The notes: generated by a model not told the origin, from the sequence alone. Positions 9,009 through 40,530 are shown, counted from the stretch's first letter. The stretch: DNA of 64,000 bases from a virus (IMGVR_UViG_2933348407_000001:32001-96000); one strand, 5' to 3'. Made by a program: numbers and translations.

Positions 9009-9030
9009 GACTGCCGCTCGGTGGGACGGA

Positions 9031-15606: not shown

Positions 15607-15609
15607 CCA

Positions 15610-15640: not shown

Positions 15641-15647
15641 GCGCGGC

Positions 15648-18705: not shown

Positions 18706-18722
18706 GCGCGGGCCCGAGGGCG

Positions 18723-18752
18723 GCTTGCACAATTGTGCAAGAACGATCTTGG
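18723..18752 (+). promoter_or_regulatory. 30-bp element with 18-bp palindrome, copy 1
   Basis: GCTTGCACAATTGTGCAAGAACGATCTTGG. Confidence 0.75.
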
Positions 18753-18774
18753 GCGCGGAGGGCCGCCCGCAGCG

Positions 18775-18805
18775 CGCGACGCTAACCACCCGCACTGTGC
18801 ATGGT
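18775..18805 (+). promoter_or_regulatory. putative late-promoter motif (leaderless)
   Basis: CGCGACGCTAAC-N13-CATGGT-N7-ATG(18813). Confidence 0.65.
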
Positions 18806-18812
18806 CCGCGCC

Positions 18813-24800: not shown

Positions 24801-27800
24801 GAGCTTCTGCAGGGCTTCCTGCGCGAGTACCTGGGCGACCGCACACTCCGCGTCGCGCACGACGACCGGTACGGCTGGGTTCTCAACACCGGCCGCGTGC
24901 CCGAGGCCAACAACGTCATGTACGGCGTCCCGGCCGTCGAGCCCGACCCGGACAAGGGCATCAAGGGCAACAAGGGCAAGAACGCCGTTGAGATCGCCCG
25001 CGCGATCCTCGGCTTCGGCTCGCTGACCGTCTACGAGGACGACAAGCGCAAGGAAGTCGACGAGGCTACGTCACGTCTGATCCGGCAGAAGGCCGATCAG
25101 ATGCGGGCCGAGTTCGCCAAGTACGCCACGGCGAACGCCGAGCGGCTGAGCGTCCTCACCGACTCGTACAACCGCATCATGAACGGGCACATCGTCCGTT
25201 CGTACGAGGGCATGTCGCCCACGCTCGAGGGCTTCACCCCCGACCGCAACCCGCACGCCTGGCAGCTCGCCGGCGCGGCCCGGATGCAGTTCGAGCGGGG
25301 CGTGATCCTCGCCCACGAGGTGGGCCTCGGCAAGACGTCGACGCTCGTCATGGGCACCCAGGCTCTCAAGGCGTCCGGGCAGATCGAAAAGCCCATGGCC
25401 GTGGTGCCCAACCACGTCTCCAAGCAGTTCTACGACGAGGCCCGACTTCTCTACCCGAACGCCGACATCCACCTGATCACTTCGGCGGACCTGGCCGGCG
25501 ACCGGCGAGGCAGCACGCTGGAGTGGCTGCGCGCGAACAAGCCGGACCTGGTCATCTTCACCGAAGAGGCGTTCGGCTCGATCAAGATGAGCCCGGAGGC
25601 TCAGGACGACTACGAGTTCCGGGAGCTGGAGGCGCTGCGCGAGCAGCTTGACCGCCAGTACGAGGACGCCGACAACCCGAACCACCCGTTCATCGTCGCG
25701 AAGATCGAGCAGCGCATCGCGACGGTCAGCAAGAACATCAACAAGAACGCCGCCCCGATGCGGCGGCCGGGCGAGACGTACTGGGACGACCTCGGGTTCG
25801 ACTACTTCGTCGTCGACGAGGCCCACAGGTACAAGGGCGTCGGCTTCCGCTCCAAGGAGGGAGGCGGCGACCCCGCGTCCATCCGCGGCGTCGACCTGCA
25901 CCAGAAGACGACCGATCTGCACCGCCGCCGCCAGGGCCGGGCCACGATCACGCTCGCCACCGGTACGCCGCTGTCGAACAGCATCAGCGAGCAGTTCACC
26001 ATGCTGATGTTCGCGGCGCCGTGGGTGCTGGACGCCTACAAGGCGGGCGCTCCGGACCTGTGGGCCAACACCTTCGGCCGCAAGACCCTGCGCATCGAGA
26101 ACGCGCCCGACGGCTCCGGCCTGCGCGTCGTGGAGCGGTTCTCCGAGTTCCACAACAAGCGCGCCATGAAGACCATGTGGGGCCTGGTCGCGGACACCAA
26201 GCGCGGTGACGACGTCGGCATTCCCCGCCCGAAGCTCAAGGGCGGCAAGCCGAATCTGATCATGGTCGACGCGACGCCCGACCAGAAGAAGCGCCTCAAG
26301 GGGCTCGTCGCCCGCGGCCGCGCGATCCACAACGGTGAGGTCGACCGCCACCAGGACAACATGCTCGCGGTGTCCAACGAGGGCACCAGCGTGGCCCTCG
26401 ACCCGCGGCTCATCGACGCCAAGGCCCCGGCCGGCAACAAGCTCAAGGCCGTCGCAGACCGGCACATCGAGCGCTACTTCCAGCACAAGGACCGGATCTA
26501 TCCGGTCACCCGCGACAGCCTCGTCGACCACCCCGTCCCGGGCGCCCTCCAGATGATCTTCCTGAACGAAGGCGTCCCGGGAGGCAAGAACAAGGGCAAC
26601 TTCGACGCCTACGCCGAACTCAAGCGGCTCATGGTCGCGGGCGGCATCCCCGCGCACAAGATCGCCTTCGTCCAGGACGCCAAGAAGTCCGGCAAGCCCG
26701 AGGACATGACGGAGCTGTTCCGGAAGGCCCGCGAAGGAGAAATCGCGGTCCTCATCGGCTCCAGCGCCGTCGCGGGTACGGGCATGAACGCCCAGGACCG
26801 CATGATCTCCCTCTCGCACGTCGACCTCGACTGGGGCGCCGCGCAGATGGAACAGCGCAACGGCCGCATCCTGCGCTACGGCAACCTGAACCCCGAAGTC
26901 GAGATCGACATCTACGCGACCAAGGGCTCCATGGACGGCTGGAAGGCCGGATTCGTCGCCGCCAAGGCTGAGGGCCTGGTCGACATCCAGCGGCCCGAGC
27001 CGGAAGACGGCGACTCCAGCGACGTCGTCCAGGAGATCGACGGCGCCGAGTTCGACTACGAGACGATGGAAGCCGAGATCGGCGGCAACCCCTTCATGAG
27101 CCAGCTCATGAAGGCGAAGCGCCGTCTCAAGGACCTGGAGATCGACCAGCACAACGAGGCCGCCGAGCGTATCCGCCGCGCCGAAGCCCTCGATGCGCTG
27201 CGCCAGGAAGCCCAGGCCACCCGCGACGGCATCCAGCGCCGCGAGCAGGCCCTGCCCCGCATCCAGGAGGCCGACGACCGGTTCCGCATGACCATCGGCG
27301 GCTCCCCGTATGGCGAGCGCTCCGACGCTGGCAAGGCCCTGCACCGGCAGATCACCTCCCGCCTCCTCGAGCACAATCGTGAGGGCCTGAGCGACTGGCA
27401 CGTCCTTGGCCAGTTCCGCGGCCTGGACTTCGGTGTCCGCACCGAGAAGACAGCGGACGGCAAGCTCGTCGCGCACGTCGGCTTCCCCGACCTGCGGCAC
27501 TCGGACTTTGAGCGGACCGTGGAGGACCTGCAGAAGAAGGGCGCCGGGGCGGGCATGATCACCCGCCTCGGCAACGCCCTCGACAAGGCGCCCGCGTTGC
27601 AGGAGTCGGACCAGGCCAAGGTTCCGGAACTGGACGAGCAGATAGCCCTGCTCCAGTCCGCACACGCGGCCGCGGACCTCACCCCGCAGATCGACCACGC
27701 TCGCAAGCGGTCGAACCTGCTCGAGGAGATCGTCGCCCGCGTCACCAACCTGGACGCGAAGCCGGAGATCGACCCCGACGAACTCGACAAGGAGCGGTAC

Positions 27801-30800
27801 AAGAACAAGGACGACCGCGAGAAGATCGCCAAGGGGCGGCGCGAGGAACGCGAGCCGCTGCAGGCCGCCGTCGACGAGGCCGTCGCGAACCTGCACCGCT
27901 GGGACGAAGAGAACCCGGCACCCGAACAGGACGACACGGTCCGCCTCTCCGAAGACGAGGTGCGCGAAGCCCTCGCCCGCCTCACCCCGGAGCCCAGCAC
28001 CCCCCCGAAGCCGGGCGCCCCGGAGACCAACAACCGCAGTTCCGCGGATGCCGACACCGACGTCGACGAGCCGAACCCTGACGAGACGGAGGCACCTGAC
28101 ACCACCGGATCAGGCAGCAGCGACGAGCCGCCGGCCGCCGTACCGGCCGAGGGTGACACCGACGCCCAGAACGACGGCCAGGACCAGGACGACGTCGTTC
28201 GCCTCTCCGAGGAAGAGGTGAACGACACCCTCGCCAGCATCCAGCCGGACGCCGACACGACCGGAGGCGACGAGCCGGACGAGCCGCTGCGGTACGCGTG
28301 GGACAAGCCCGAGGACTTCGTCACCCTGACCATGCCGGCTGCACTCGCCGACTTCCTCAACGTCGACGAGACCGCCGCCATGGAGGACCCCGACACCCGA
28401 AAGGCCCTCAAGGAGGCCAAGCCCGGCCGCCGCGGCACACTCCAGGTGACCGGCCCGATCGAGGTACACCGCGCCCTCCTCCAGTGGGCATGGACGCTCG
28501 AGGGCGGCGAAGGACTGGAGTCCGACCCCAGCGATGTCCGGGCCTACAAGGCGTACGCCAAGCGCATCGACGAGGCCGACGCAGACCTGCAGCGCCGTCG
28601 CGCCGAGCGGGAGGCCGCGGCCTCCGCGGACACCGACGAGAACAACACCCCGGACACGGACAACACGAACGACGGCGGCAGCGACGCGCCGCCGGCCGAC
28701 GCCCCCAGCACGGCTGAGCCGGACGGCGAGGACGACCAGGACCAGAGCACCGACGACGACACGGAGGCCAGTGACACCGTCACCCTGACTCCGGATGAGG
28801 TGTCCGACCAGCTCGACGCTGTACGCCCCGAGGGGTCCAAGGCTCCGTCCTCGATGGACGATGGCGAGATCCGCGACGAGATCGTCGACCTGATGGGCCG
28901 TGAGATGGCGGATGAGCTGTCCGGCGCGGACCGTACCCGCCTGCAGGTCCTGGAGGCGGAGGAGGCCCGCCGTGCCGGCCGGGCCCCGAAGCCGGAGCCC
29001 AAGCCGAAGCGGACGACCGAGGAGCCCGGGGGACTCTTCGACGTCGACCAGCCCACCACCCAGCAGCCGAGCAGCGCCGCCGATGTCGACAACCCTGAGG
29101 ACCAGCCCGACGACCTCTTCGGCACGCCGGACATGATCGCCGACGCCGAGGGCCGCAGCACCGAGGGCCTGCGCCCGGCGCGCATGCGCAACGCCGCCGA
29201 CTTGGAGCAGGGCGACCGGTACACCGACGCAGACGGCCGCACGCACACCGTGTCCGAACCGCCGGTCAAGACGCCTCGTGGCCGGACTCGCATCGTCACC
29301 GACGACGGCGAGGAGCGCTTCTACAACGCCGACGCCCAGGTGCGCCTGCGCTACCCGGACGAGGAGATCCCCGACAACGAGACCGACGAGCGGTCCGCCG
29401 ACGACGATGCGGACAACGTCCCGGCCGTCGACGAACCGGAGACCTCCGAGCCGGACGTCGACGGGACTCCCGCCGACGAGCCGGAGTTCACCCCCGACAG
29501 CTACCGCAGCAGCGCCAAGGACCGCGCCGACCGCATGACCGGCCTCATCGACCAGGCCACCGACGGGGCAGGCGGTGACGAGCTGCCCGAGGTCAGCGAG
29601 GTCCGTGATGCGTTGGGCAGGGCCGAGGACTCCGACGACCCGGACGCCGAGCTGCGTTCCGCCGCCGACCGGCTCGACGACCTCGCAGAGATGTATGAGC
29701 TGGGAGGCCCCGACGGAGAGCGCGCCGCAGACCTGTTCCGGCAGGCCGCCCGCATCGCGAGGGGTGAGGACGAGGACGATCGCCGCGGCGACGACGACCG
29801 CAACGAGGACGACAGCGAAGCCCCCGACGCTACGAACCAGGACTCCGAGGAGGACCAGGACGACGACGAGGAACGCCAGCAGCGTCGGAATGGGGACGCG
29901 GACAGCGACGCCGCCGACCCGGACGGTGCCCCCGACGGAGGCGGCGCTGGCACCCCGGCCGCTCCCACCGACGAGGAGGACGAGGACGGCAGCCCCGACG
30001 ATGTGCCCGACAACTCCGACGACGAGCAGGACGAGCCGGAGGCCGAGGAAGACGACGAGCAGGACGACCGTCGCCGACGTCGCCGTCGGCGTCGCCGCAA
30101 CGGCGGTGGCGGCAGCGGCGGCCCCAGCGGGCCCGGCCTGCCGCACCTGAACCTGCCCGACCTCAACACGCCGGACACCGGAGGCGCCGACGGCAACGGG
30201 GATGGCGGAGACGGCCGCGGTACGCGCGACCGCGGGCGGACCCCTGTACGGCACAGCGACGTCAATTCGCTGCGCCGCGCCTGGAAGAACGGCGATGGGC
30301 TCACTCCTGCCGAGGACACTCCGCAGCGGCGCGAGGCCCTGGCACAGGCGGCCGACCGGGACGGCTTGGCTCTGTCTCCGGGCGGGGGCCTGGTGACGTG
30401 GCCCGAACAGCAGGAAGACGGCACCACCCTGTGGCGCTTCGCCCAGGCACGCAACGGCGCCAACCTGACCGGACTGTCCCTGACCACCGAAGACCCCGAA
30501 GAGGCCCGCGCGCTCGCAGGCCGCTTCGAGGAGATCACCGGTCGCGACGGGCAGCCCTTCGACTGGCAGCAGGCGTGGGGCCCGAGCACCGTCGGGCAGT
30601 GGCGCGACGGGGAGGGCCGCAACCTGCAGCGGGCGCTCCAGGCCGTCCTCGACGACTTCGAGCAGCAGCGGGACGCCTCCGCCCAGCCGGAGCCGACGCC
30701 AGAACGGAGGGCGCTGCCAGACGACCTCACCGGCCTCGACGACGACGAGCTGGTCGACGCGTGGAGCAACGACCTCAGCGACGAGGACCAGAAGCGCCTC

Positions 30801-33800
30801 ATGGCGGAGATGGACCGCCGCGACGGCTACACGGACCAGCGCGTTCGTGACGTGCTGCCGGACACCCCGCCAGCCGACGCCGAAGAGGCCGAGCGCCGCG
30901 CAAAGGCCGTCGACGAGGCCCTCGGCTTCGCAGGCGCCGACGTTCCGCGCGTGCGTCGCACCCGTGAGGACATCATCCGTGCGGAGTTCGCCGACTTCGA
31001 CGAGGCCCGCTACCAGGCCGCCATTGCCGCCACGAACGGCTACTTCTACGCCCGGAAGTACAAGTACGGCAGCGGCATCAACGAACGAGAGCTGTTCTCC
31101 GGCGGTGAACTCGCCAAGTTCGGCCGCTGGGAGGAGTACGCCAGCGAGGAACTGAAGGACTGGTACAAGGCCAACGGCGGCCGCATCACGTACAACCAGT
31201 TCCGGCAGACCTACCGGGACAACGACCGCCGAGACCGGCAGCAGTTCGAGGAGGAGCAGCGCCGCCAGGCGGAAGCCGGGCAGACCACGGAGCCCACCAC
31301 CCCGGAGACGGAGCCGTACGACCCGGTCACGCCGCGCTTCGCGGATGAGGCGGCCCTTCGGGATCACATCCGCAGCGGGCAGCTCGACGAGGTGCCCGAA
31401 GACCAGCGTGGAGACGTGCCCTCAGCCGAGGAACGCGCGCAGATCGCCGATGCCGAAAGCACCCAGCTCTCCGACGGCGGCCGACTGCTCATCTACGGCA
31501 ACGAGGCCGGTCGCACCGGCAGCCGCAGCGGGCAGCGGTTCGACGTGGCCCTTCCGGGCAGCATGCAGCCCCTGTTCCGCAGCGGCTTCCACAGCGCCGA
31601 GAAGGCCCGCCAGTACGCCAGCGTCCTCGAGGGCATCAAGGACGCGGACGGCAACCCGTTCCCGTGGGACGCCCCCGACGTCGCCGAGCGCGCCCGCGCG
31701 TTCCGGACCGCCGACGGCAACCGGCTGTTCGACGAGATCACGGAACGCCTGTACGGCTTCAACGACCTCTACGAGCAGTGGAACAGCGACCGCGGCCAGG
31801 CATTGCACCACCGGACGTGGAGCCAGCAGGAAGCCGACTGGAACACCCGCGAGGAGGAAGCCGGCTACTCGATTCCCGTCGACCTGACGGACATTCGCCC
31901 GGGTGACGAAATCAGCTTCCCCGTGGCCACGAGCCGCGGACAGAACACGCGGCCGCAGGACGAGTACGTGGGAACCGTGCACGCTACGGTGACCGGCGAG
32001 GGAGAGCCCTTCCGATACCGCTCGCAGTTCTCTGCCTTCGGGAGTCAGCAGCTCTACCGGTTCCCGGCTGAAGGCTCCTGGACCAACCAGTACGGGGAGC
32101 ACACCGAGATCGACGAGGCGTTCCCGAACCTGGGTGTCGTCCGCCGCCGCCCGCGGCCCGATGAGGTGCCCAGCACGGGCGACGGCCGCGACGACCGTTC
32201 GTCCCGCGCGGACACCCCGCAGGCGGAGACGCCGGGCACCGCGACGCCCCGCGCGCGGCGGCAGCCCGCCCCGGACCGTGCTCCTGCAGAGCCGGAGCCC
32301 GCCGTGCCCTCGGCGCCGGCCGACGAGCCGCAGGGTGAACCCGAGCCCGTGGGCGGTCAGCCCGCGCACTGGGCGCGTGTCCGCGACCTGGTGCAGGGCG
32401 ACATGGTCCGTATGGACGGCCGCACGAGGAACGGTCGCGCCATCACGCGGTCTGGCTACGTCTTCACCGGGCCCGTCGACGTGGAGGTCACTCGCAACGG
32501 CCGTACGGAGCGGATGCTGCGCACGTACGTCACGGCGAACCCGGACGGCACTGGCAAGCGTGGCAATGTCTTCACGCCGCGGAACGCCACCGCGGCGCGG
32601 GCCGAGACGCCCGACGACGTGGTGCCCGGGTCTCCGGCCAGCGGCGCGCAGAGCGCCGTTCAGGCCGGCAACCTCCCCGACCTGATCCCCGCGGACCGGA
32701 ACGGCCGGGGCTTGTTCCCGGGCAGCACGGTCACCAGTGTTGACGGGCTACGTACCCGTGAGGGCACCGTCACGGGCGCCACCAGCACCACGGTGTCGGT
32801 GCGCTGGGACAACGACGACACCGCAGACGGTCTCTCTCCGAACGCCCTCACCGTGACCGGTGGCGACCGCCCCGACGGCTGGACCTCGTCCGGGCAGCGC
32901 GTGACCCCGCGGCACATCGTGACCGACACCGAGGGCGCTCTCCTCGGGCCCGTCGACGAGGTCAACGGCGACCGCGTCACCATCACCACCGCCGAAGGCA
33001 CCATCACGCGGAGCGCCGGAGATCTCCGCGTCGCTGGCGAAGTGCGCGACGACGCCCCGGGCACCGACCCCGTCACCGGCATCGACGACCCGGCGGCCGC
33101 GGACATCAAGGAGGACGACGTCGTGGTCCTGGACCTCGACGGCACGCCCACCACTGTGGCGGTCACCGGTATCCACCGCGAAGGCGACCGCGTCACCATC
33201 GACTTCGCCGACACCACCACAGGCGAGATCGGTCAGATCGACGTGGACGCCTCCCAGGTCATTCCCCGGGCCCAGGGCGCCGACGACACTCCGCCCGACC
33301 TCGGGCCGGACGACGCCCCGGACGCCCCGGACGACCTGACCGTGCACGAGCCGCCGCACCGCGTCGAGCCCGTCACCGGCCCGACCCTCGACCCCGACCT
33401 CACGATGGGCGACCGAGACGTCATCGGTGACCTCGCGGACGGCCCGGACGACGACCCCGACGCCCAGCAGGCCGCCGTACGCATCACTGCCGACCTGCCT
33501 GTCCCCCCGGAGCAGGCCGCCGCGCTTGCCGCGCAGCTCCGCGATTCTGCCGACCCCTCGACCCCGGAGGGCCGTGCCGCCCTGCGCGCCGCCAACCACC
33601 TGGACCGGGCTATCGGCCGGACCCCTCCGCCCGAGCTCAACCGGCCGCGGCCGTCGAACGCCGCACAGGTCGCGGAAGACGACACGATCGCCATCCCTGA
33701 CAACCGGGGCAACGGCGTGAGCGTCTACCGCGTTCGGGGTGTCGAGGACGGCCCCGGCGGTACGCGCAGCCTCCTCCTGGAAGGCGAGGACGGCCGTACA

Positions 33801-35843
33801 CGCCGCCGCGTCGTCCACGGAGCGATGCCGCTGTGGCAGCTCAGTGAGCCCCAGTCGGACGGCGAGAACGGACCGGATGACACCGCCCTTGTGCCGGGCG
33901 CCCCGACTGCGCCGACCCCGAGCCTGCCGCCCGCCGGTGCTCCTCGGGACCCCAACCCGTCCCCGCAGTCCGACGCCGACCGCATCGTCGCCGACCACCC
34001 CCGCGCGGTCGCCGCGCGGATCATCGACGCGGCGATTGCGGGCACCGAACCGCCCGGCGACATCCACGCGCTTCGTGAGCAGATCGCCCAGCGCCTCACC
34101 GCCGAGGCCCTGCGCGATGCACGCCAGGCCGCTCGCGACGACGCCGTGGCCGCGTTGGACGCCGCGGGTGTCACCGGCCGCGACCGGTCCGCAGCGCTGC
34201 AGGCCCTCAAGAAGGCACGGCAGAAGGCCCACACCGCGACGGTGCGCGCCGCCCTGCGCACCATCAACGACCTGGAGCCTCTGCCCGACGAGAGCGACGA
34301 GGACCTCGCCGCGCGGGCCCGTGACCTCCTCAGCCTCATCCCCGACCAGATGGGAGGCACCCCCAACGGGCCCGACAACGACGGTGATGCAGACATCGCC
34401 CGCACCGTCGCCGGGCACGTCGACGACGCCGTGAACGCGATCATGCGGCAGCTTCAGACCGCGGGCGTGGACCCGGGCGACGCCGACCGTATCGCCCGCG
34501 TCCTTGCTCAGCAGATGAACGGCTCCCGACAGGCCACCGCCCGGCAGATCGCCCGCCGAGTGACGGCAGTGTCTCCGCAGGCCGGCCGCCAGCCGGGGCT
34601 GCTCGCCCGGGTCGTGGCCGCGCTCGTCCGTCTCGCCAAGCGCTTCGCGGAACTTGTGCGGGCGGCAGCCCGGAAGATCGCCGAGAAGTACCGCAGTGCC
34701 CGTGAGCGCATGCGACGCCTGCGCGCCTTCCTCGGCCGTCTCGCCCGCCGGGTCCGGGAGTGGCCGGAGTCTCGGCGCCTGGCCCGCCTGCACCGCGCCC
34801 TCGACCTGCCCGGAGCCGACGGTGAGTCCCTGACGGCCCGGATCTCCCACTGGGCCGGCCTGATGCCGGAGGCCGGACGCTTCGGTCAGGCTCAGCGCCG
34901 TGTCACGTGGTGGAAGCCCACGACGTGGGCGCAGCTTGCCGCCGGGCGGCTCCCGGGCCGAAGCGACCGCACTCAGTGGGCGCCGGACCGGGCCGCGGAC
35001 GGTGGCCCCGGCCTGACTGCGCTCCGCCACCTGGCAGCGCTGAGGGCGGCCGGCGGCGATGTCGACCAGGACGTGACCCGCCGTCTGGCCGACGTTCTCG
35101 GCGGCGACTTCGGCGGCGACCCTCACGGCACGCTGCAGCGCGCGGACGACTACGTGGCGCTCACCGAGCGCCGCCTGGTCAACCTCCAGGCCGCGCGGAC
35201 GGGCGGCACCCTGCCGGATGACCCCGACCTCGAGGTCGAGATCACTGCGGCTCGGGCCGAAGCCGCGGCCGCGCGCCGAGAGTGGGCGGACCTGCGGGCC
35301 CAGTACGCCGCGGCGGTCCCGGACGCGGTCGCGGCGACCCTCGCTGAGATCCGCGACATGGGTCCCGAAGGGAACGCCAGCATCGTGTTCGGTCCGGACT
35401 CCACGCCGGACGCCGAGCGGGCCGTACGGGGCGTGCAGCGCCTCGTGCCTCGGGCGTGGCTCAACACCCCGGCCGCGCGCCGCGTGACGGCCGTGGACGG
35501 CGACGAGGGCCGCTACGAGCCCGACGGGCAGCGGATCACGATCGCCGATCTCGCCGACGACGGGCTGGGCACCGCCGGGCACGCCCTTGCCCAGCACCTT
35601 GCCCAGCACCTGGGAGACCTGGACGCCGCCCAGCGCGCGTTCTGGTTCAACCAGACCCACACCGGCCGGCCGGGCGCCCGCCGCATGCGGCGCAGCACCC
35701 TCAGCCGCATCATGCGTCGCCAGCAGACGCAACCGGACACCGGTGACACCCTCGCCCGGTCCGTTCAGTCGATGTTCAACGGCGACTGGTACCTGGATGA
35801 CGACCTTCGGGCGTTCCTTCTGGGCCTGCTCGCCACCCGATGA
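18813..35843 (+). CDS. giant polyvalent DarB-like protein: N6-adenine methyltransferase, SNF2 helicase and accessory domains
   Basis: MTase motifs VLEAGSGAGTFF and AIGNVPF; helicase motifs AHEVGLGKT, VDEAH, LATGTP and EQRNGRILR; N-terminal WNPALHPRDSKGRF; start could instead be 18801. Confidence 0.85.
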   Translation: MLNRPTAQAESQDLSRDLEVKVTRRPWNPALHPRDSKGRFIETGGVVRTWGGKLARVIRALPHDRILVQDQTGPNEFNGRRHTTSAKWVSMVARPDGSAPTDDEEKVAEEDERRTQDPRRGNGVARDDDGDPDTPNEPHDQDDKGRPIGDDDGDGPDNDDDQDEPEDGAHPVNVDALPNRQHAAGARHKDTAAVRRHFTQLAEQPGTSPDMATFLLSVAHDDDLQTAPSGRLAILRDERNGRFYLTATGTGQRVDAAGDFDTAQDAERFAEHLDKTAVNGQLTKFQQPFDFSDPQLDREARDWRTTRGENIQGAIQRARTEFAGTPAPTATPKTSADNRTDGSGQRFSTLQAARAHWQQRLGQINDLGPDSLREQRAARHLEGLISNDRIKLVGRGQFVVGQDQNGEWYLVATGNGLPLRRRWTSQRGAQAFAESFAENPPMGDDGKPLDLSDPNVRIATWRSEDNRSISEVIDAAAEKFQRENAAGEPPAVTPAPAAVPETPAAPQAPETPEEPQAPALPGNAEPVEGVDGYHYVNDGGSITLYGPDGQVAATSERGYPPQAKIDGVTVPVPQYPKQGAAVMARLHRAAKNPDQRDRITAAWVMKPGKDGKPAKRVMVFRGTIKGDDRDYDAVGSTRAIKWAPSLRAYSTQSNMTEATRDERISEVLSNLARQGRNVHVTDETAAGAPGAPANAVDETEALRKAIANADDARLSQMKYERWGTINRTRSEANRRRLNSEVEMIDDELKRRRKERDEAAARDATSLSDDDIANRIRESQEERGTYGVRKGQEANDVERAIYSERRRRSQALVDDDTDLTTAAEDDLAKARETVAERVRMHQAAGDDPEAERTMRQALQNRHDVIVGEQQRRHAQQIADRPPVVDLTDEELSQEYNDLLRRDFRKAPPEAQQVLEGRMEDVKRERRDREKRAITDRDAPENLSDEDLKEEYTELRRTRSSYTGTDDVKAARKERMAALEAEQNRRDTTPETEQLLARVDNPDANGMISIDGRSGYGYVDYRDQTHGYAGRQLGWTWGKQRHSHGDTAYPSRAAALAAMVQAYDNDPDTRGERTWGTKRRVFVPKMFVELYQNERLRDRLADASEERQFLYSLFRDRYGWDDGVNPLVPSNKKGHNIKGRNLWVPEGLLAELNRVTEELSRDMSVRATDRDADSSDRQKAKTRLASINVALHGIEAQRESVRKNGGDDDRKVISREEIEAQQAALRAALGGDDDEHVQSDGPGSLEDVPAQGVGGDDRSGGVRRDEGQGDRDSDSEGRGGSGADSSGADGVRGAGRPAQADQGGRNSDGPGGASAGAGARGGEGAGADANGEAPAGDQGPDVRRVARFRPDPANAPKGARARATANVEAIRVLKKLEAENRPATDEERRILARWSGWGSVPILFANEPNEKEPRYQQGGTRYGKFAKDHERWSEYSDVRSELQRVLTPVEFRQASRGVLSMHYTPQPIAEAMWEGLRAFGFDRGDVLEAGSGAGTFFGVAPNGARLTGVELDPTTARIAQAIYPHANVLNESFAETDVGPGTFDAAIGNVPFARVPFDDKRYPAESLHNGFVTKEIALVRPGGITAVITSRQTLDSKGDRARRQMAKYGDLVGAVRLPSGVFTDAGTGVTTDVLVFRRREDGTEPADPSWLDAPERDINGTAHHINAYFDEHPEHILGTLTTQSGPYGPEVTVKGDPAKAAEQLRAALDDIAAKAKADGRGYEPHPDGDNRPPVQLQTAREKHANDWTGRLYEGDDGQFYQHVNGAEPVLLEPADGNTAQLRALMQLRDVAAELRELDRKNDEEERAEALRAQLRDLHADYVAEYGPLSKPGQHRTKGGRPTAWGYFRADPDAAAVLALERWDASKGEPALSRVFTERAAARRQPLSSTNDPKAALAAVVAAKGEVDLGEIARLLDVTPQEAVKRLGNEVFTDPETGGLELAGAYLSGAVRDKLDAARKAAERDPGYAVNVAALEAVQPPDRTIGQFTPEMGAHWTPPELLQGFLREYLGDRTLRVAHDDRYGWVLNTGRVPEANNVMYGVPAVEPDPDKGIKGNKGKNAVEIARAILGFGSLTVYEDDKRKEVDEATSRLIRQKADQMRAEFAKYATANAERLSVLTDSYNRIMNGHIVRSYEGMSPTLEGFTPDRNPHAWQLAGAARMQFERGVILAHEVGLGKTSTLVMGTQALKASGQIEKPMAVVPNHVSKQFYDEARLLYPNADIHLITSADLAGDRRGSTLEWLRANKPDLVIFTEEAFGSIKMSPEAQDDYEFRELEALREQLDRQYEDADNPNHPFIVAKIEQRIATVSKNINKNAAPMRRPGETYWDDLGFDYFVVDEAHRYKGVGFRSKEGGGDPASIRGVDLHQKTTDLHRRRQGRATITLATGTPLSNSISEQFTMLMFAAPWVLDAYKAGAPDLWANTFGRKTLRIENAPDGSGLRVVERFSEFHNKRAMKTMWGLVADTKRGDDVGIPRPKLKGGKPNLIMVDATPDQKKRLKGLVARGRAIHNGEVDRHQDNMLAVSNEGTSVALDPRLIDAKAPAGNKLKAVADRHIERYFQHKDRIYPVTRDSLVDHPVPGALQMIFLNEGVPGGKNKGNFDAYAELKRLMVAGGIPAHKIAFVQDAKKSGKPEDMTELFRKAREGEIAVLIGSSAVAGTGMNAQDRMISLSHVDLDWGAAQMEQRNGRILRYGNLNPEVEIDIYATKGSMDGWKAGFVAAKAEGLVDIQRPEPEDGDSSDVVQEIDGAEFDYETMEAEIGGNPFMSQLMKAKRRLKDLEIDQHNEAAERIRRAEALDALRQEAQATRDGIQRREQALPRIQEADDRFRMTIGGSPYGERSDAGKALHRQITSRLLEHNREGLSDWHVLGQFRGLDFGVRTEKTADGKLVAHVGFPDLRHSDFERTVEDLQKKGAGAGMITRLGNALDKAPALQESDQAKVPELDEQIALLQSAHAAADLTPQIDHARKRSNLLEEIVARVTNLDAKPEIDPDELDKERYKNKDDREKIAKGRREEREPLQAAVDEAVANLHRWDEENPAPEQDDTVRLSEDEVREALARLTPEPSTPPKPGAPETNNRSSADADTDVDEPNPDETEAPDTTGSGSSDEPPAAVPAEGDTDAQNDGQDQDDVVRLSEEEVNDTLASIQPDADTTGGDEPDEPLRYAWDKPEDFVTLTMPAALADFLNVDETAAMEDPDTRKALKEAKPGRRGTLQVTGPIEVHRALLQWAWTLEGGEGLESDPSDVRAYKAYAKRIDEADADLQRRRAEREAAASADTDENNTPDTDNTNDGGSDAPPADAPSTAEPDGEDDQDQSTDDDTEASDTVTLTPDEVSDQLDAVRPEGSKAPSSMDDGEIRDEIVDLMGREMADELSGADRTRLQVLEAEEARRAGRAPKPEPKPKRTTEEPGGLFDVDQPTTQQPSSAADVDNPEDQPDDLFGTPDMIADAEGRSTEGLRPARMRNAADLEQGDRYTDADGRTHTVSEPPVKTPRGRTRIVTDDGEERFYNADAQVRLRYPDEEIPDNETDERSADDDADNVPAVDEPETSEPDVDGTPADEPEFTPDSYRSSAKDRADRMTGLIDQATDGAGGDELPEVSEVRDALGRAEDSDDPDAELRSAADRLDDLAEMYELGGPDGERAADLFRQAARIARGEDEDDRRGDDDRNEDDSEAPDATNQDSEEDQDDDEERQQRRNGDADSDAADPDGAPDGGGAGTPAAPTDEEDEDGSPDDVPDNSDDEQDEPEAEEDDEQDDRRRRRRRRRRNGGGGSGGPSGPGLPHLNLPDLNTPDTGGADGNGDGGDGRGTRDRGRTPVRHSDVNSLRRAWKNGDGLTPAEDTPQRREALAQAADRDGLALSPGGGLVTWPEQQEDGTTLWRFAQARNGANLTGLSLTTEDPEEARALAGRFEEITGRDGQPFDWQQAWGPSTVGQWRDGEGRNLQRALQAVLDDFEQQRDASAQPEPTPERRALPDDLTGLDDDELVDAWSNDLSDEDQKRLMAEMDRRDGYTDQRVRDVLPDTPPADAEEAERRAKAVDEALGFAGADVPRVRRTREDIIRAEFADFDEARYQAAIAATNGYFYARKYKYGSGINERELFSGGELAKFGRWEEYASEELKDWYKANGGRITYNQFRQTYRDNDRRDRQQFEEEQRRQAEAGQTTEPTTPETEPYDPVTPRFADEAALRDHIRSGQLDEVPEDQRGDVPSAEERAQIADAESTQLSDGGRLLIYGNEAGRTGSRSGQRFDVALPGSMQPLFRSGFHSAEKARQYASVLEGIKDADGNPFPWDAPDVAERARAFRTADGNRLFDEITERLYGFNDLYEQWNSDRGQALHHRTWSQQEADWNTREEEAGYSIPVDLTDIRPGDEISFPVATSRGQNTRPQDEYVGTVHATVTGEGEPFRYRSQFSAFGSQQLYRFPAEGSWTNQYGEHTEIDEAFPNLGVVRRRPRPDEVPSTGDGRDDRSSRADTPQAETPGTATPRARRQPAPDRAPAEPEPAVPSAPADEPQGEPEPVGGQPAHWARVRDLVQGDMVRMDGRTRNGRAITRSGYVFTGPVDVEVTRNGRTERMLRTYVTANPDGTGKRGNVFTPRNATAARAETPDDVVPGSPASGAQSAVQAGNLPDLIPADRNGRGLFPGSTVTSVDGLRTREGTVTGATSTTVSVRWDNDDTADGLSPNALTVTGGDRPDGWTSSGQRVTPRHIVTDTEGALLGPVDEVNGDRVTITTAEGTITRSAGDLRVAGEVRDDAPGTDPVTGIDDPAAADIKEDDVVVLDLDGTPTTVAVTGIHREGDRVTIDFADTTTGEIGQIDVDASQVIPRAQGADDTPPDLGPDDAPDAPDDLTVHEPPHRVEPVTGPTLDPDLTMGDRDVIGDLADGPDDDPDAQQAAVRITADLPVPPEQAAALAAQLRDSADPSTPEGRAALRAANHLDRAIGRTPPPELNRPRPSNAAQVAEDDTIAIPDNRGNGVSVYRVRGVEDGPGGTRSLLLEGEDGRTRRRVVHGAMPLWQLSEPQSDGENGPDDTALVPGAPTAPTPSLPPAGAPRDPNPSPQSDADRIVADHPRAVAARIIDAAIAGTEPPGDIHALREQIAQRLTAEALRDARQAARDDAVAALDAAGVTGRDRSAALQALKKARQKAHTATVRAALRTINDLEPLPDESDEDLAARARDLLSLIPDQMGGTPNGPDNDGDADIARTVAGHVDDAVNAIMRQLQTAGVDPGDADRIARVLAQQMNGSRQATARQIARRVTAVSPQAGRQPGLLARVVAALVRLAKRFAELVRAAARKIAEKYRSARERMRRLRAFLGRLARRVREWPESRRLARLHRALDLPGADGESLTARISHWAGLMPEAGRFGQAQRRVTWWKPTTWAQLAAGRLPGRSDRTQWAPDRAADGGPGLTALRHLAALRAAGGDVDQDVTRRLADVLGGDFGGDPHGTLQRADDYVALTERRLVNLQAARTGGTLPDDPDLEVEITAARAEAAAARREWADLRAQYAAAVPDAVAATLAEIRDMGPEGNASIVFGPDSTPDAERAVRGVQRLVPRAWLNTPAARRVTAVDGDEGRYEPDGQRITIADLADDGLGTAGHALAQHLAQHLGDLDAAQRAFWFNQTHTGRPGARRMRRSTLSRIMRRQQTQPDTGDTLARSVQSMFNGDWYLDDDLRAFLLGLLATR
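22504..22842 (+). CDS. nested +1-frame gene (TnpV-like small helical protein) inside the giant ORF
   Basis: GGAGG at 22494, ATG 22504; third-position GC bias switches to this frame; HWRTYLP..W..M.DPEAF pattern. Confidence 0.65.
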   Translation: MTNMFSPMVRDHWRTYLPKEWAAMTDPEAFVETKAREIETQILKAEEALEQTVPEPTEYEEQVGRHKQIRADATAMVLAELLPEPEPGAEKAPEQTPMEKHLQEIRDLMYDA

Positions 35844-35853
35844 GGAGGTAGCC

Positions 35854-36123
35854 GTGCCGTTCACCGTCACCGGCGCGTTCGATGACGGGGCGACCTACAG
35901 CGTGCAGGTCACCGGGCGGGCCGACCGCCCGGTGATCGGGTCGCACCGCGCCACCGCCCTGGTGGAGCTCCATCAGGGAAGCCCGGTCTCCCTGTCCCCG
36001 ACCGGCCCCGTCCGTACGGTGGCCGGAGACGATGAGGCGACCGTGCTCGCAGTGCTGCGGGAGTACACCAAGGTCGTCGAGGAGGGGCCCGGCGCTCCAC
36101 AGCAGGCCAGCGTTCCCGGGTGA
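35854..36123 (+). CDS. small hypothetical protein
   Basis: GAGGAGG RBS directly after the giant ORF stop; GTG start. Confidence 0.7.
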   Translation: MPFTVTGAFDDGATYSVQVTGRADRPVIGSHRATALVELHQGSPVSLSPTGPVRTVAGDDEATVLAVLREYTKVVEEGPGAPQQASVPG

Positions 36124-36130
36124 GCCAGGC

Positions 36131-36160
36131 GCTTGCACAATTGTGCAAGAACGATCTTGG
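36131..36160 (+). promoter_or_regulatory. 30-bp element with 18-bp palindrome, copy 2
   Basis: Identical to 18723-18752. Confidence 0.75.
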
Positions 36161-36182
36161 TCCGGGATGGGGCGGGCGTGGC

Positions 36183-36212
36183 CGGGACACAAGCGGCCCC
36201 GCCCGTCATCCT
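36183..36212 (+). promoter_or_regulatory. putative late-promoter motif (leaderless)
   Basis: CGGGACACAAGC-N12-CATCCT-N6-GTG(36219). Confidence 0.55.
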
Positions 36213-36218
36213 CCACCC

Positions 36219-36824
36219 GTGACCAGATACGGATTCGCCATCAAGGCCTTCCCCAAGGGCGGTAAGCCGTTCGGGGACGAAGAAGACGACGAGCAGCCCG
36301 AGGGCGCCGAGGAGGAGACGCTCGAGGGCGAAGGCCCCGCAGCGGCTTTCGAGGACCCTTCCGCCGACATGGGCCAGGACCCCGCGGCGCCGCCCGAGGA
36401 CCCGGCCGCGCCCCCGGAGGACCCGGCCGCCGAACCGCCCACACAGGGAGCCGAGCCCCCGACGGAGGGCGAGGAGCCGGTCGACGCACCAGAGCCGCCG
36501 GCCGACGACGCCCGGCCGTGGGCGGGCGACATGTACGACGAGGGCGACGAGACCGACCCGGCCGACTCCTTTTCCGCGTACACCGGCAGCAACGGCGAAC
36601 AGGCTTGGTTGGATCGGGCCCCAGACGGCACACTGACCGGGTGGGTCAGGGACGGCACGGGCCAGGTATGGCGCTACACCGACCCGGACGCGTGGGCGGT
36701 CGACGTGGACGGCGCGCACATGACCCGCACGCACAGCCAGGCCGACGAACCTTCCGCCCCGCCCGCGGACGCCCCACCCGGCAACCGCGGCGTACAGGAC
36801 TCGATGTTCCAGCAAGGGAGCTGA
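36219..36824 (+). CDS. acidic Pro-rich hypothetical protein in the head module
   Basis: PPEDPAA repeats and a Trp-rich C-terminal domain; start inferred from the promoter motif. Confidence 0.65.
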   Translation: MTRYGFAIKAFPKGGKPFGDEEDDEQPEGAEEETLEGEGPAAAFEDPSADMGQDPAAPPEDPAAPPEDPAAEPPTQGAEPPTEGEEPVDAPEPPADDARPWAGDMYDEGDETDPADSFSAYTGSNGEQAWLDRAPDGTLTGWVRDGTGQVWRYTDPDAWAVDVDGAHMTRTHSQADEPSAPPADAPPGNRGVQDSMFQQGS

Positions 36825-36825
36825 C

Positions 36826-37035
36826 GTGCAGTTGACCCGCAGCACCGCCTTTGCGCTCCAGCAGGAGGGCAAAGCCGCCTTCGAGGCGGGCGACCCCGCT
36901 GACTCCAGCCCGTACAGCCGGTTCGGCAACGCGGAGCAGCAGTTCGGCTACCAGTTCTGGACCCGCGGCTACATCACGGCGCGTTCGGCCGCCGAGGGTG
37001 CCCAAGAGCCTGCAGGAGCCAGCGCAGGACGTTAG
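36826..37035 (+). CDS. small protein, Rmf/CrpP-like pattern
   Basis: EGKAAFEAG....SPY....W.RGY; GGGAG RBS. Confidence 0.55.
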   Translation: MQLTRSTAFALQQEGKAAFEAGDPADSSPYSRFGNAEQQFGYQFWTRGYITARSAAEGAQEPAGASAGR

Positions 37036-37094
37036 CCAGACGCGAACGGCACGGTGCCCGGCGGCCCACTGTCCACCGCCGGAGGTTCCCCGCC

Positions 37095-39014
37095 GTGCCG
37101 AGCGCTCCACCCACCAGATCGTCACACCCGAACACCCTGCGAGGCACCAGCCGGGCAATCTACGCCGTCACTGGCGTGGTCGACGAGGTCAACGACCTCA
37201 TCGTCCCCGGCGCCTTCGCCCACACCCTGGCCACCCGCCGCGTCAAAGCCGTATGGCACCACGAATGGAAGGACGCCGTCGGCGTCGTCCTGCACGTCGA
37301 GGAGTGGCTACCCGGCGACCCGAGGTTCGCCGACGTCCCCGACTGGCCCGCGGAGGCCGGCGCCCTGGTCGCGACCGTCGAGTACAACCGGCGCACCAGC
37401 AAGGGACGCGACACCTACGAGCAGGTCAAGCAGTGGTACGAGCACGGCGAAGCCGCGTTCTCCATCGGCTACCGCGTGCCCGCCGACGGAGCCACCCGCC
37501 GCGGTGACGGCGTCCGCGTCATCCACCGTCTCGACCTGTTCGAAGTGAGCCCCGTCCTGCACGGCGCGCACCCGATGACCCGGGCGCTCGAGGTCAAGGC
37601 CGCGGCCAACCCCGGCATGGAGTACAAGGCGACGCCCAACCTCGTCGAACTCGACACGGGGAAGGACGAGGACCGCATCAAGGTCGCCGGACTCGTTCTC
37701 AAGGCCGAGGACACCGGCCGCGTCCTGCTCATCCAGCGCGCCCTCGACGACGAGGACCCGGCCGCCGGAACCTGGGAGTTCCCCGGCGGGCACCTGGAGA
37801 AGGGCGAGGACGCGCTCGCCGCGGCGCTGCGCGAGTGGCAGGAGGAGACCGGCGCCGAACTCCCCGGAGCGACAAGCGTCGTCGGCTCCTGGACCGCCCC
37901 GAATGGCATCTACCGCGGGTTCGTCGCCATAGTCCCCGGCGAGTCCCACATACCGCTCAACCGGCCCCCCAGCGAACGACGGGTGACCAACCCCGACGAC
38001 CCCGAGGGCGAAACGCCGGAGGTCACCGCCTGGTGGCCGATCACCGCTCTCCCCGACATGTCCCTGCTCCGGCCCGCATGCCGAGACACCCCGTGGTCTC
38101 TCCTGGCAGGCGCCACCTTGCCGCAGGGCCCGGCGGCCAAGAAGCCCAGCGCCGAGGCCGAGCAGTTCGCCGCTGGCGTCATGAACACCTACGCCGCTCT
38201 CGGCGCCACGGAAGCGAAGTCCGCGCACGCCGCCGTGGCCGCCGCCCGTTCCGTCCAGCCGCGCATCGAGCACAAATCCGCCCGCTCCACGGTCGCCGAG
38301 GCCAAGAGCCATCCCACGCCCCTCCCGGAGGCTTCTGTGATGTCCCCCAACCCCCTGCCCGAGTCTCAAGAACAGTTCCGCGCCCGCCTCTCCGACAGCG
38401 TCCGCGAACTCCTCGACCAGGACGGCCAGACCTGGACGTGCATCGAGGGCACCTACCCGGACCGCGTCATCGTCTCCGTGCACAGCGAGGACGAACGGCG
38501 AAGCAGCCACTACGCCATCCAGTACACGGCCACCACGAACGGCGAGATCAGCCTCGGCACCCCTCAGTCCGTCGAACTCGCCACCGTCGTACTCCCGGAG
38601 GGCACCAGTGCGCAGCGTGCGGCCACCGACGCGGAAGACGTCGATGCCCGCGTGGTGCAGCCCACCGCGGAAGCCCTCGCCGACGCCACCGCCCGCATCA
38701 ACACCACCGAGGCCGACCCGGACCAACTCACGGGCGTACGGGACAAGGTGCGCACGCTGATCGCCGCCCTGTCCGCGAAGGGCCTCGACATCGCCGACGA
38801 CACCGATGTGCCCAAGGACGCCCCCCGGGACCGCACGGCCGGCCCTACCGGCATGGACCTGTGGGACGAGTACACGTTCAACGACGACGAGGACGAGGAC
38901 GAAGTCCCCACGGAGGACGCGCCGCCGCCCGCCGAAGACGACGTCGACGACGAGGACACGGTCCGGCTCGACGAGGACGAAGTGAAGTCCGCGCTCGCCA
39001 TGATGCGGAGCTGA
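37095..39014 (+). CDS. HK97-family prohead protease fused to a NUDIX hydrolase domain
   Basis: DLIVPGAF, WHH, FSIGY and LFEVSPVLHGA (peptidase S78); Nudix box GGHLEKGEDALAAALREWQEETG. Confidence 0.85.
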   Translation: MPSAPPTRSSHPNTLRGTSRAIYAVTGVVDEVNDLIVPGAFAHTLATRRVKAVWHHEWKDAVGVVLHVEEWLPGDPRFADVPDWPAEAGALVATVEYNRRTSKGRDTYEQVKQWYEHGEAAFSIGYRVPADGATRRGDGVRVIHRLDLFEVSPVLHGAHPMTRALEVKAAANPGMEYKATPNLVELDTGKDEDRIKVAGLVLKAEDTGRVLLIQRALDDEDPAAGTWEFPGGHLEKGEDALAAALREWQEETGAELPGATSVVGSWTAPNGIYRGFVAIVPGESHIPLNRPPSERRVTNPDDPEGETPEVTAWWPITALPDMSLLRPACRDTPWSLLAGATLPQGPAAKKPSAEAEQFAAGVMNTYAALGATEAKSAHAAVAAARSVQPRIEHKSARSTVAEAKSHPTPLPEASVMSPNPLPESQEQFRARLSDSVRELLDQDGQTWTCIEGTYPDRVIVSVHSEDERRSSHYAIQYTATTNGEISLGTPQSVELATVVLPEGTSAQRAATDAEDVDARVVQPTAEALADATARINTTEADPDQLTGVRDKVRTLIAALSAKGLDIADDTDVPKDAPRDRTAGPTGMDLWDEYTFNDDEDEDEVPTEDAPPPAEDDVDDEDTVRLDEDEVKSALAMMRS

Positions 39015-39240: not shown

Positions 39241-40530
39241 ATGCCCGACAACGCTCGCATCAAGGAACTGCAGAAGCAGCTCCAGGCCAAGAGCGCCGAG
39301 GCCGAGGAGATCAGCAAGTCCTTCAAGGTCGAGGACGGCGGGTTCGTCGTCTCCACCGAGCAGGCAACCAAGTTCCGCAAGGTCTCCAGCGAGGCGCAGG
39401 AGATCAAGGCGCTCATCGACGCCGAGCAGGGCCTGGTCGAGATCAAGCAGTACCTCGACGCCCCGGAGACCACGCCGGCCGCGGCCGCGCACTACGGCAA
39501 GACGCCGACCATGGAGGAGAAGTCGCTCGGCGACATGTTCGTCGACTCCGACAGCTTCAAGCGAGCCAGCGCGGCCGGTTTCGATGACCGGCCGTACATC
39601 CGCGCCGCGATGGAGGGGAAGTCGATCTTCTCCCTGAGCGCCGGCACGGTCACGCACCAGACCCTCGGCAGCGTCCAGAACCTGGGCATCGCCGAGCGGG
39701 CCTACCGCAAGTGGCACATCCGAGACCTGTTCCCGAAGTCCTCGACCAAGCAGGCCGTCCTCTACGGCGCCCGGGAGACCGGCTGGACGAACAACGCGAG
39801 GCAGGTCAAGGAGCGCTACGCCGCCGACGGCACCAGCCCGGCGACCGGTGCGGACACCGACACCTGGGGCCGGGCCCCGCGGTCGAAGCTGTCCCTGACC
39901 CCGGTGATGTACCCGGTCGCCGAGGTCGCCCACCTGATCGACGCGCATAAGAACATCCTGAGCGACGAACCGAGGCTCAAGACGTTCATCAACGGGCGCA
40001 TGGTCGAGGGCGTCAAGTACCAGGAAGATTGGGACCTTCTCCACTCCGTCGGCGACGGCCAGTCCCTCACCGGCATCTACAACACCCCCGGTGTTCAGCA
40101 GTACACGGGGTTGGCGACCGACAAGTACAGCGTCCAGATCCGGCGTGCCATCACCAAGGCGCTCCTTGCCGAGTACGAGCCGACCGGCATCGTCCTGTCG
40201 CCCACGATGTGGGAGCACGTCGAGGTCGAGGAGGACGACAACGGAGCCTTCCGTGTCGCCATCGCCGTCGCCATCGGCGCGGAGAAGAAGGTCTGGAGGC
40301 TGAACGTCGTCGAGACCACGGCCATGTCGGACGGGGACTTCCTCATCGGCGCCTTCGGCCTCGGCGCCCAGCTCCACGACAGGGAGAACGTCAGCGTCAC
40401 CGTCTCCTCGGAGAACGCGGACAACTTCGAGAAGGGCCTGATCACCTTCCGCGCGGACGAGCGCCTGGCGCTCGAGGTCCCGCGGCCCGAGTCCTTCGTC
40501 ATCGGCACCTGGACCCAGCCCACCGGCTGA
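39241..40530 (+). CDS. HK97-fold major capsid protein
   Basis: Coiled-coil delta domain, EEKSLGDMF, GDG....GI and NF.KGLITFRADERLALEV.RP.SF. Confidence 0.9.
   Translation: MPDNARIKELQKQLQAKSAEAEEISKSFKVEDGGFVVSTEQATKFRKVSSEAQEIKALIDAEQGLVEIKQYLDAPETTPAAAAHYGKTPTMEEKSLGDMFVDSDSFKRASAAGFDDRPYIRAAMEGKSIFSLSAGTVTHQTLGSVQNLGIAERAYRKWHIRDLFPKSSTKQAVLYGARETGWTNNARQVKERYAADGTSPATGADTDTWGRAPRSKLSLTPVMYPVAEVAHLIDAHKNILSDEPRLKTFINGRMVEGVKYQEDWDLLHSVGDGQSLTGIYNTPGVQQYTGLATDKYSVQIRRAITKALLAEYEPTGIVLSPTMWEHVEVEEDDNGAFRVAIAVAIGAEKKVWRLNVVETTAMSDGDFLIGAFGLGAQLHDRENVSVTVSSENADNFEKGLITFRADERLALEVPRPESFVIGTWTQPTG

Follow-up and report, generated by a model that had tools for sequence, protein, structure and literature searches.

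Why does a giant phage protein contain, three times over, a likeness of the peptide that ends the protease encoded further along the same strand? The question is raised by a stretch of 64,000 nucleotides, hereafter called the window, which corresponds to bases 32001-96000 of a single-contig virus record of 108,523 bp classed as a provirus (IMGVR_UViG_2933348407_000001) and read here as a Streptomyces prophage. The window has a G+C content of about 70% and its + strand is a siphovirus-type late region, in which a gene for a polyvalent DarB-like giant protein of 5680 residues (18801-35843, + strand, a single open frame with a GC3 of 0.89) precedes a gene for a prohead protease of 639 residues (37095-39014, + strand). 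An earlier note, made from the sequence, had proposed that the peptide ending the protease is a capsid-loading signal and that the giant reuses it in order to be packaged. We find that the repeat of the protease tail in the giant is far above chance, and we give an even chance to the reading that this 19-residue peptide, called the tag below, is a capsid-docking element shared by the two proteins.

The protease tail recurs in the giant protein

Each of the four peptides that the earlier note had reported was confirmed in its place, on the + strand and in frame with the giant or the protease gene. The protease copy, DTVRLDEDEVKSALAMMRS (38955-39011, residues 621-639), forms the last 19 residues of the protein and is directly followed by the stop codon. 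Copy 1 in the giant, DTVRLSEDEVREALARL (27933-27983, giant residues 3045-3061), had a BLOSUM62 score of 59 and was also recovered, with E 8.7e-5, by a profile made from protease tails only (see below). Copy 2, DVVRLSEEEVNDTLASI (28191-28241, residues 3131-3147), scored 45 and is preceded by a variable acidic linker of 69 residues, and copy 3, DTVTLTPDEVSDQLDAV (28773-28823, residues 3325-3341), scored 36 and heads a conserved module starting RPEGSKAPSSMDD. When the genome of 108,523 bp was scanned in six frames with a strict pattern, these four matches and no others were obtained. The BLOSUM62 scores come from a scan with the last 20 residues of the protease over 164,395 stop-free sequence windows, in which the next best score was 29. 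The giant sequence was shuffled 2000 times: the maximum score reached at least 45 in none of the shuffles and at least 36 in 24 of them, and the third-best score reached at least 36 in none. Because of these outcomes copies 1 and 2 are secure and copy 3 taken alone is borderline, yet copy 3 resembles copies 1 and 2; it appears to be a weaker, more distant relative of the pattern.

At the DNA level, the four copies have a mean column identity of 74% over 81 nt, and they differ at synonymous positions. It is thus the protein sequence in which the likeness has been maintained, with no recent gene conversion, and on the same degree of identity a recombination joint was rejected as the origin of the copies.

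Anatomy of the tag and of its linkers

The peptide is made of an acidic run, a short extended piece (T-V-R-L) and an amphipathic helix, N-capped and about 11 residues long (E-V-x-x-x-L-A-x-hydrophobic). In the protease, columns V630, K631, L634 and A635 of the tag are invariant in 10 relatives, and a low-confidence model predicts a helix at residues 627-638. Giant residues 2961-3480 were modelled with AlphaFold2 from an alignment of 7 rows (mean pLDDT 61), and every giant tag came out as an 11-residue helix (model residues 91-101, 177-187 and 371-381). The 10-residue blocks that cover these tags have an average pLDDT of 50-74, and the flanking stretches 102-172, 188-199 and 321-366 fall below 50.

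The linkers of the giant are strongly acidic, with a net charge of -15 to -17, and the 58-residue stretch ahead of the protease tag has a net charge of -21. The placing of the giant copies in acidic disordered linkers, as the earlier note had it, is mostly right: the charge and the stretches of low pLDDT agree with it, and the departures are tag 1, just 8 residues past the final helix of the DarB-like block, where the model is helical and confident, and tag 3, which leads directly into a conserved module. Among six close relatives, column identity was 0.89 in tag 1 versus 0.57 in the linker that follows, and 0.97 in tag 3 versus 0.73 in the linker that precedes it, the tag copies appearing as conserved islands within variable linkers.

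The register of the tag is also constant. The T/Q with which its motif opens stands 18 residues from the stop in all of the 14 relatives' protease tails read (the 10 loci of the pattern search described below together with L009, L011, L012 and L014), and the window's own protease tail has the same spacing. Position 18 of the giant copies is a proline in all but one (L016); therefore the internal copies end, structurally, where the protease chain ends.

Distribution of the tag among relatives

Relatives of the protease are encoded by 12 IMG/VR loci. The tail is kept in 10 of them (L004-L012 and L014), down to an overall identity of 43%; the two others match the middle of the protease only, and their ends differ. 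We then ran a profile of 20 columns, built from 23 tag instances including giant copies (profile A1), against 15 related records; profile searches of records use a first-look filter, and the matches at E<=10 are not exhaustive. There were 33 such matches, 15 at the protease C-terminus (one per record) and 18 inside the giant open reading frame (ORF), and no third tagged protein was found at this threshold in any of the 15 records. The protease tail is thus strictly C-terminal and conserved in 15/15 records. Giant copies, from one to three, are present in 10 of the 14 records that hold both genes: three in G000, G005 and G009, two in G010 and G011, one in G001, G006, G007 and G012, and one partial copy in the Streptomyces phage Gilgamesh. 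On four more contigs, for which a 10-kb flank only was taken, we counted three copies in L004, L005 and L008 and two in L006. The linker together with copy 2 is missing from L006 and L016.

A second profile (A7), made from ten protease tails only, was run against ten records. It gave 16 matches, namely the 10 protease tails and 6 giant copies from 5 of the 10 records (G000, G005 with two, G009, G001 and G011; E 8.7e-5 to 0.011), and no match elsewhere; no giant copy was recovered by it in G010, G006, G007, G012 or Gilgamesh. The copies behind the DarB-like block are therefore true look-alikes of the protease tail.

Thirteen proteins share the C-terminal 44 residues of the protease, all of them from Streptomyces records and all with S78 and NUDIX domains; the Streptomyces homologues of the protease are 611-703 residues long. 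We also ran on IMG/VR a degenerate DNA pattern for T-V-R-L-x-x-[DE]-E-V. It retrieved 44 stretches: 10 protease tails, 2 giant copies and 32 other contexts, the latter divided into one portal-like sequence found 9 times, 3 short ORFs and 20 unrelated cases. The 3 short ORFs, on metagenome contigs L030, L061 and L034, code for 65, 65 and 75 residues, and their T-V-R-L-x-x-D-E-V stands exactly 18 residues from the stop, as in the protease tail; they may be due to chance or may be small tagged proteins.

Tails and copies vary to some extent together. Protease tails ending in A-A-I-Q-x pair with giant copies containing L-D-A-I-R-P, and tails ending in A-L/M-M-R-S pair mostly with copies containing L-D-A-V-R-P. 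The check on motif co-variation put forward in the earlier note thus returned one clade-level difference only, with G007 as an exception, and since the pairing separates just two clades it gives no evidence of co-evolution. Among the relatives, identity ranges from 69 to 99% for the capsid protein versus 43 to 94% for the protease; the stronger conservation of the capsid protein fits a fixed receptor and would explain the lack of informative co-variation.

The tagged genes belong to an HK97-type head module

Upstream of the giant gene lies that of a portal protein with a C-terminal MuF-like domain fusion (15977-18463, + strand; Pfam Phage_portal E 1.4e-41, Phage_Mu_F E 3.1e-5), and the protease gene is followed by that of a major capsid protein of 429 residues with the HK97 fold (39241-40530, + strand; Pfam Phage_capsid E 7.7e-31). 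The order portal-MuF, giant, protease-NUDIX and capsid protein with a delta domain is that of an HK97-type head module; a tail tube protein gene and then a 1351-codon gene of tape-measure size are found downstream of the capsid gene. The nearest named phage, Gilgamesh, is an isolated phage with the identical order: a portal annotated as 'portal and MuF-like fusion protein', a 'hypothetical protein' of 4624 residues, a 'hydrolase' of 641 residues and the major capsid protein. A literature search found no paper on Gilgamesh.

With HK97 gp5 the capsid protein shares 30% identity (E 3e-38), and with the annotated capsid protein of Gilgamesh 84.6% over residues 1-428. Its N-terminal delta domain covers about residues 1-94 (nt 39241-39522). 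Residues 92-98 (EEK SLGD) align with FNK SLGS of HK97, and the E-x-K-S that they contain (39514-39525) is likewise present in the capsid proteins of Gilgamesh and of the distant myophages Cantare and ChisanaKitsune. The HK97 capsid protein is cut between that K and S. By alignment with the HK97 K|SLG, the maturation site of the capsid protein is likely E-x-K|S, with the cut predicted at K94|S95.

The protease and a candidate nested product

The protease is composed of an S78 domain (Peptidase_S78, PF04586, E 1e-10; phrog_80, E 3.4e-17), a NUDIX domain (E 1.5e-18) and a further C-terminal region of about 220 residues; a profile of the protease alignment matched no solved structure at E<=0.1. 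Its gene may also contain a second start. A GGAGG followed, after an 8-nt spacer, by an in-frame ATG at protease residue 416 was read at 38327-38342 (+ strand), and GGAG with ATG or GTG stands at the homologous alignment column in 10/10 relatives, even though the encoded peptide is variable at that point. Of the 20-28 in-frame ATG or GTG codons of a gene, 2-4 have such a site, and this column is the sole one common to all. Such conservation at one column makes it likely that a separate C-terminal product of 224 residues, ending in the tag, is made from this nested start at 38340; if that product is real, the tag also terminates a scaffold-like protein. Lambda C/Nu3 is a nested in-frame protease-scaffold gene, and the candidate internal start of a tag-bearing C-terminal product here would be a similar arrangement.

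The protease protein is rich in [EH]-x-K-S, with 4 occurrences observed versus 0.11 expected. Three of them (positions 373, 392 and 402) lie in conserved inter-domain linkers (38211-38309) and the fourth (629) lies inside the tag; the capsid protein has 2, and the giant and the portal have 0. In the relatives' proteases, E-x-K-S-A-R-x-x-V-x-E-A-K-S repeats flank inserted domains and are therefore candidate autoprocessing sites.

The domain content of the protease varies among relatives. The middle domain (37683-38051 in the window) is swapped, being NUDIX in the window and in L004-L008 and, in L009, L011, L012 and L014, another domain with two H-x-T-L motifs that is 2H phosphoesterase-like by eye. 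An extra insert of about 85 residues is found in the proteases of L007, L008 and L012, and in Arthrobacter phages the NUDIX domain is located in the portal gene. The swapped domains look like cargo enzymes hitch-hiking on head proteins.

The giant protein is a mosaic

The only recognised families in the giant form a dyad of N6-methyltransferase and SNF2/SF2 helicase (22344-27746, + strand, giant residues ~1182-2982), which matches phrog_10089, 'DarB-like antirestriction', with E 3.9e-270 and Pfam N6_Mtase, SNF2-rel_dom, ResIII and Helicase_C weakly; none was recognised in residues 1-1000 and 3001-5680. The giant thus has the DarB-type feature, an N6-adenine methyltransferase fused to an SF2 helicase, and also what characterises polyvalent proteins, that is several modules in one polypeptide, a neighbourhood of packaging genes and a methylase-helicase dyad. 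No MuF domain was found in it by the Pfam search, MuF being fused to the portal instead. Because it is DarB-like and polyvalent and is encoded between portal-MuF and the protease, the giant is a plausible capsid cargo.

Related giants are 3917-6065 residues long, and their pairwise comparison revealed strong mosaicism. Five IMG/VR giants have in common only their first 143-488 residues and a C-terminal part of roughly 1150; residues 1-348 and 4517-5680 of the window giant are common to the Gilgamesh giant. Alignments of giants break at or beside the tags (L016 at 3114 and 3326, L017 at 3326, Gilgamesh at 3161), and the giants of G003 and G004, whose DarB-like block is merely 34% identical, have neither of the tag-bearing segments. 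From these comparisons the tags seem to travel with particular modules, to sit at mosaic junctions and to be dispensable. The N-terminus of the giant (18801-19850, residues 1-350) is conserved in every related giant, with 57-83% identity, or 48-59% over longer spans. It contains N-P-A-L-H-P-R-D-S-K-G-R-F, and no other real gene in the genome has a match to the motif HPR..G[RK]F.

In the myophages, the interval from portal to protease holds separate genes and no single giant (8240-19906 in the Gordonia phage ChisanaKitsune, L003; 6179-11910 in Cantare, L002). These genes include an RNA ligase, an ADP-ribosyltransferase-like gene, a 970-residue HNH protein and lysin B, among others.

A proposed shared capsid-docking tag

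How might the tag act? If it is a docking element, as we favour, the tail would attach the protease, and probably also the nested 224-residue product, to the inner face of the HK97-type procapsid as it assembles, at the delta domain or the shell interior, by parallel with the HK97 protease. The giant would carry up to three internal imitations of this tail on long acidic disordered linkers, each closed by a proline. With several such points of attachment to the sites of the tail, a cargo of 620 kDa would be enclosed as assembly proceeds, and once the receptor or scaffold is degraded the giant would be free to exit with the DNA. What we infer here is threefold: the giant enters the capsid, the capsid protein is what the tag binds, and tail and internal copies dock at one and the same site.

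A fuller version of this reading is tentative, and we hold it to be rather less probable than the shared tag itself. It supposes that a 620-kDa anti-restriction machine is loaded by mimicry of the phage's own protease or scaffold tail, that the proline-capped internal helix copies, on acidic linkers at module junctions, serve as multi-point, self-releasing tethers, maturation destroying their receptor (delta domain or scaffold), and that every acquired module brings or gains its own tether. If this were true, it would amount to a natural, internal and multi-copy capsid-address code in an HK97-type system, usable for loading foreign proteins.

The closest parallel is HK97 itself, whose protease gp4 is reportedly encapsidated through its C-terminal tail, a result credited to Duda, Oh and Hendrix in 2013. 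Both loci have an S78 protease beside an HK97-fold capsid protein with an N-terminal delta domain, and in both the protease ends with a conserved acidic stretch and then an amphipathic helix; gp4 ends ...NEAQINALLQSIKSFPSNLGK, a loose likeness that is too weak for homology with the tail of the window protease. Unlike gp4, the window protease is 639 residues long, with a NUDIX (or 2H-like) domain and the C-terminal region of about 220 residues, and no second protein is known to copy the protease tail in HK97. GFP fused to a segment of HK97 gp4 was encapsulated in HK97 particles (Woods et al. 2023, cited in PMC11626933).

Other phage systems resemble the present one in part. P1 DarB is packaged in the capsid via a transferable targeting signal, its N-terminal 30 residues (PMC9024508). 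Like the window giant, it is a giant methyltransferase-helicase protein of anti-restriction type encoded beside portal and protease, but the window giant is more than twice as long, and the P1 signal is N-terminal and not common to the protease, whereas the candidate signals of the window are internal, up to three in number, and copies of the protease tail. In T4, a short targeting sequence common to IPI-III and Alt directs head-internal proteins into the prohead, and a C-terminal targeting propeptide has been proposed for the SPN3US protease (PMC7411985). The T4 signal is likewise a short peptide common to several head-internal proteins; unlike the tags, which are C-terminal or internal, it stands at the N-terminus as a propeptide, attaches to the scaffold core and is cleaved off by gp21. 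We considered whether the tag is a targeting sequence of the T4 type, and rejected this: the tags are C-terminal or at giant residues 3045-3341, and E/H-x-K-S does not occur in the giant. The 80alpha scaffold and SaPI1 CpmB have a common C-terminal motif for the same capsid binding site (PMC6893505). There too, two different proteins carry the same short motif and the capsid protein has the HK97 fold, but that case is one of piracy between phage and island, with both motifs C-terminal and of the type RIIK, and here a single phage encodes both proteins, the second with internal copies.

In encapsulins the cargo is docked to the luminal face of an HK97-fold shell by a short peptide, usually at the C-terminus, with a flexible linker. 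An encapsulin cargo-loading system was rejected for this locus, where a portal, a tail tube and a tape-measure-sized gene are present, and the likeness is one of analogy only. For phage polyvalent proteins a role as capsid cargo has been predicted (Iyer et al. 2017, PMC5512222), and the window giant is like them in being a multi-module protein with a methylase-helicase dyad, a head-gene context and strong mosaicism; the passages retrieved from that paper contain no protease-tail tag shared with a giant. Nothing like this tag was found in our literature searches, which included shared targeting and scaffold mimicry in phage cargo. Capsid-targeting peptides as such are already known; what would be new, if the reading is right, is a tag common to a head protease and a DarB-like giant, internal, in several copies and in a delta-domain system.

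The matter is of some consequence, given that the entry of giant polyvalent proteins into phage heads is largely unexplained, the worked cases being the N-terminal signal of T4 and the 30 residues at the N-terminus of P1 DarB. The shared tag is a short, defined and mutable peptide for testing loading in an HK97-type delta-domain system. If the docking reading is true, a docking signal can act from inside a polypeptide, and the tag could be used to bring proteins into actinophage capsids and to recognise capsid cargo in prophages by sequence; if the reading is false, attention shifts to the conserved ends of the giant.

Evidence against a docking role and alternative explanations

Several results weigh against the shared docking tag. 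Four of the 14 giants (G002, G003, G004 and G008), two of them from records that are 94-97% complete, have no match to the A1 profile; each of these records does hold a giant, of 3917-6065 residues, and G002 has a diverged copy with an intact hydrophobic pattern that gives no profile match. The sole copy of Gilgamesh retains the first half of the tag and has lost the helix half. The protease-only profile never recovers copy 3 or its relatives of the same type. With protease residues 596-639 as the query of a word search across 5.8 billion proteins, the tag turned up in no other architecture: by length, the search gave 1 match among shorter proteins (228 residues, content not looked at), 0 among those of 1120-3195 residues and 13 of similar lengths, all S78 and NUDIX proteins, this search requiring shared 5-residue words and its range ending at 3195 residues, with larger giants outside. 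In Cantare and ChisanaKitsune, stretches of 24.5 kb and 40.5 kb surrounding the protease gene showed no reuse of its tail above noise. An AlphaFold2 model of the whole protease (mean pLDDT 43) was too poor to inform docking. Moreover, since the tags are tied to particular modules, part of their conservation may be module inheritance, and the N- and C-terminal regions conserved in all giants could carry the true loading signal.

These results leave part of what the earlier note had proposed. Its capsid-loading reading agrees with the HK97-type setting, with a tail conserved and strictly C-terminal throughout the related records, with recurrence in the giant only and with the copies being conserved islands in variable linkers; it does not extend to the four giants without a copy or to the half copy of Gilgamesh, which mean that the tag is not generally required. 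Its suggestion that the tag could be portable is conjecture, no third protein or other architecture having the tag. Since some related giants are without it, loading probably has another signal besides the tag, which would act as an auxiliary tether.

Which alternatives would account for the same observations? One, which we consider unlikely, is that the tail docks the protease to the capsid and the giant copies are inherited pieces of modules without any loading role, the giant being loaded via its conserved N-terminal (as P1 DarB) or C-terminal region. The pieces in question would come from two modules, this DarB-like block at its end and the RPEGSKAP module at its head, and the tags are found only where these modules are present: giants with the distant DarB-like block, or without the block, are tagless. 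The missing copies and the half-lost one of Gilgamesh agree with such relics, conservation of the first 143-488 residues extends to all the giants compared (48-83% identity), and loading by the N-terminal 30 residues has its precedent in P1 DarB (PMC9024508). This explanation nevertheless leaves it unexplained why unrelated modules bear look-alikes of the protease tail, why the linkers around them are variable and why a proline stands at the same register, and in these genomes the protease-only profile has no further matches.

Equally improbable in our estimate is that the tag docks another partner, which could be the portal-MuF ring, a domain of the giant or of the C-terminal region of the protease (a protease-giant association), or a host factor after ejection. 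MuF domains are the usual carriers of polyvalent cargo (PMC5512222), and here MuF is on the portal and none is in the giant; the NUDIX or 2H-like domain of the protease is also cargo-like, so that both tagged proteins might act in the host. On the other hand, about 60 copies of the protease are given for HK97 proheads and about 90 for D3 proheads (PMC12749128), numbers that are a better fit to capsid-protein sites than to a 12-fold portal, and the strictly C-terminal position of the tail together with the HK97-type delta-domain setting points to the capsid.

The weakest alternative, which we regard as very improbable, makes the motif a recognition or cleavage site at which the prohead protease would cut the polyprotein into modules and trim itself: the tags do lie at module junctions, the E-V-K-S of the protease copy does fit the E-x-K-S of the likely capsid maturation site and of the three inter-domain sites, and processing of polyvalent proteins has been proposed (PMC5512222), but the K-S/A of the protease tail is replaced in the giant copies by R, N, S or A with an acidic residue after it, the giant holds no E/H-x-K-S, a cut 8 residues from the C-terminus would have no modular purpose, and the element common to both proteins (T-V-x-L ... 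E-V ... L) excludes the K|S part, so we take the tag to serve docking rather than cutting. As a speculation, the K-S in the protease's own tag could let the protease free itself.

Other features of the window

Two further sequence features of the giant were recorded. Near 21456 (residues ~880-1000), helices of the type L-[ST]-D-E-[ED]-L ... E-Y ... L-R-R are repeated, with a weak DUF6158 match; this repeat is distinct from the tag and was caught by the loosest pattern only. At 30069-30098 (residues 3757-3766), ten arginines come straight after a long acidic stretch and are followed by a glycine-rich segment.

Directly upstream of the head genes, positions 8070-15037 hold a sugar-modification-like gene set, consisting of an Exo_endo_phos-like gene, a TauD-family dioxygenase, a UDP-glucose/GDP-mannose dehydrogenase and a group-1 glycosyltransferase that also matches 'GT4-conflict'. 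This set may serve glycosylation of the DNA or of the virion.

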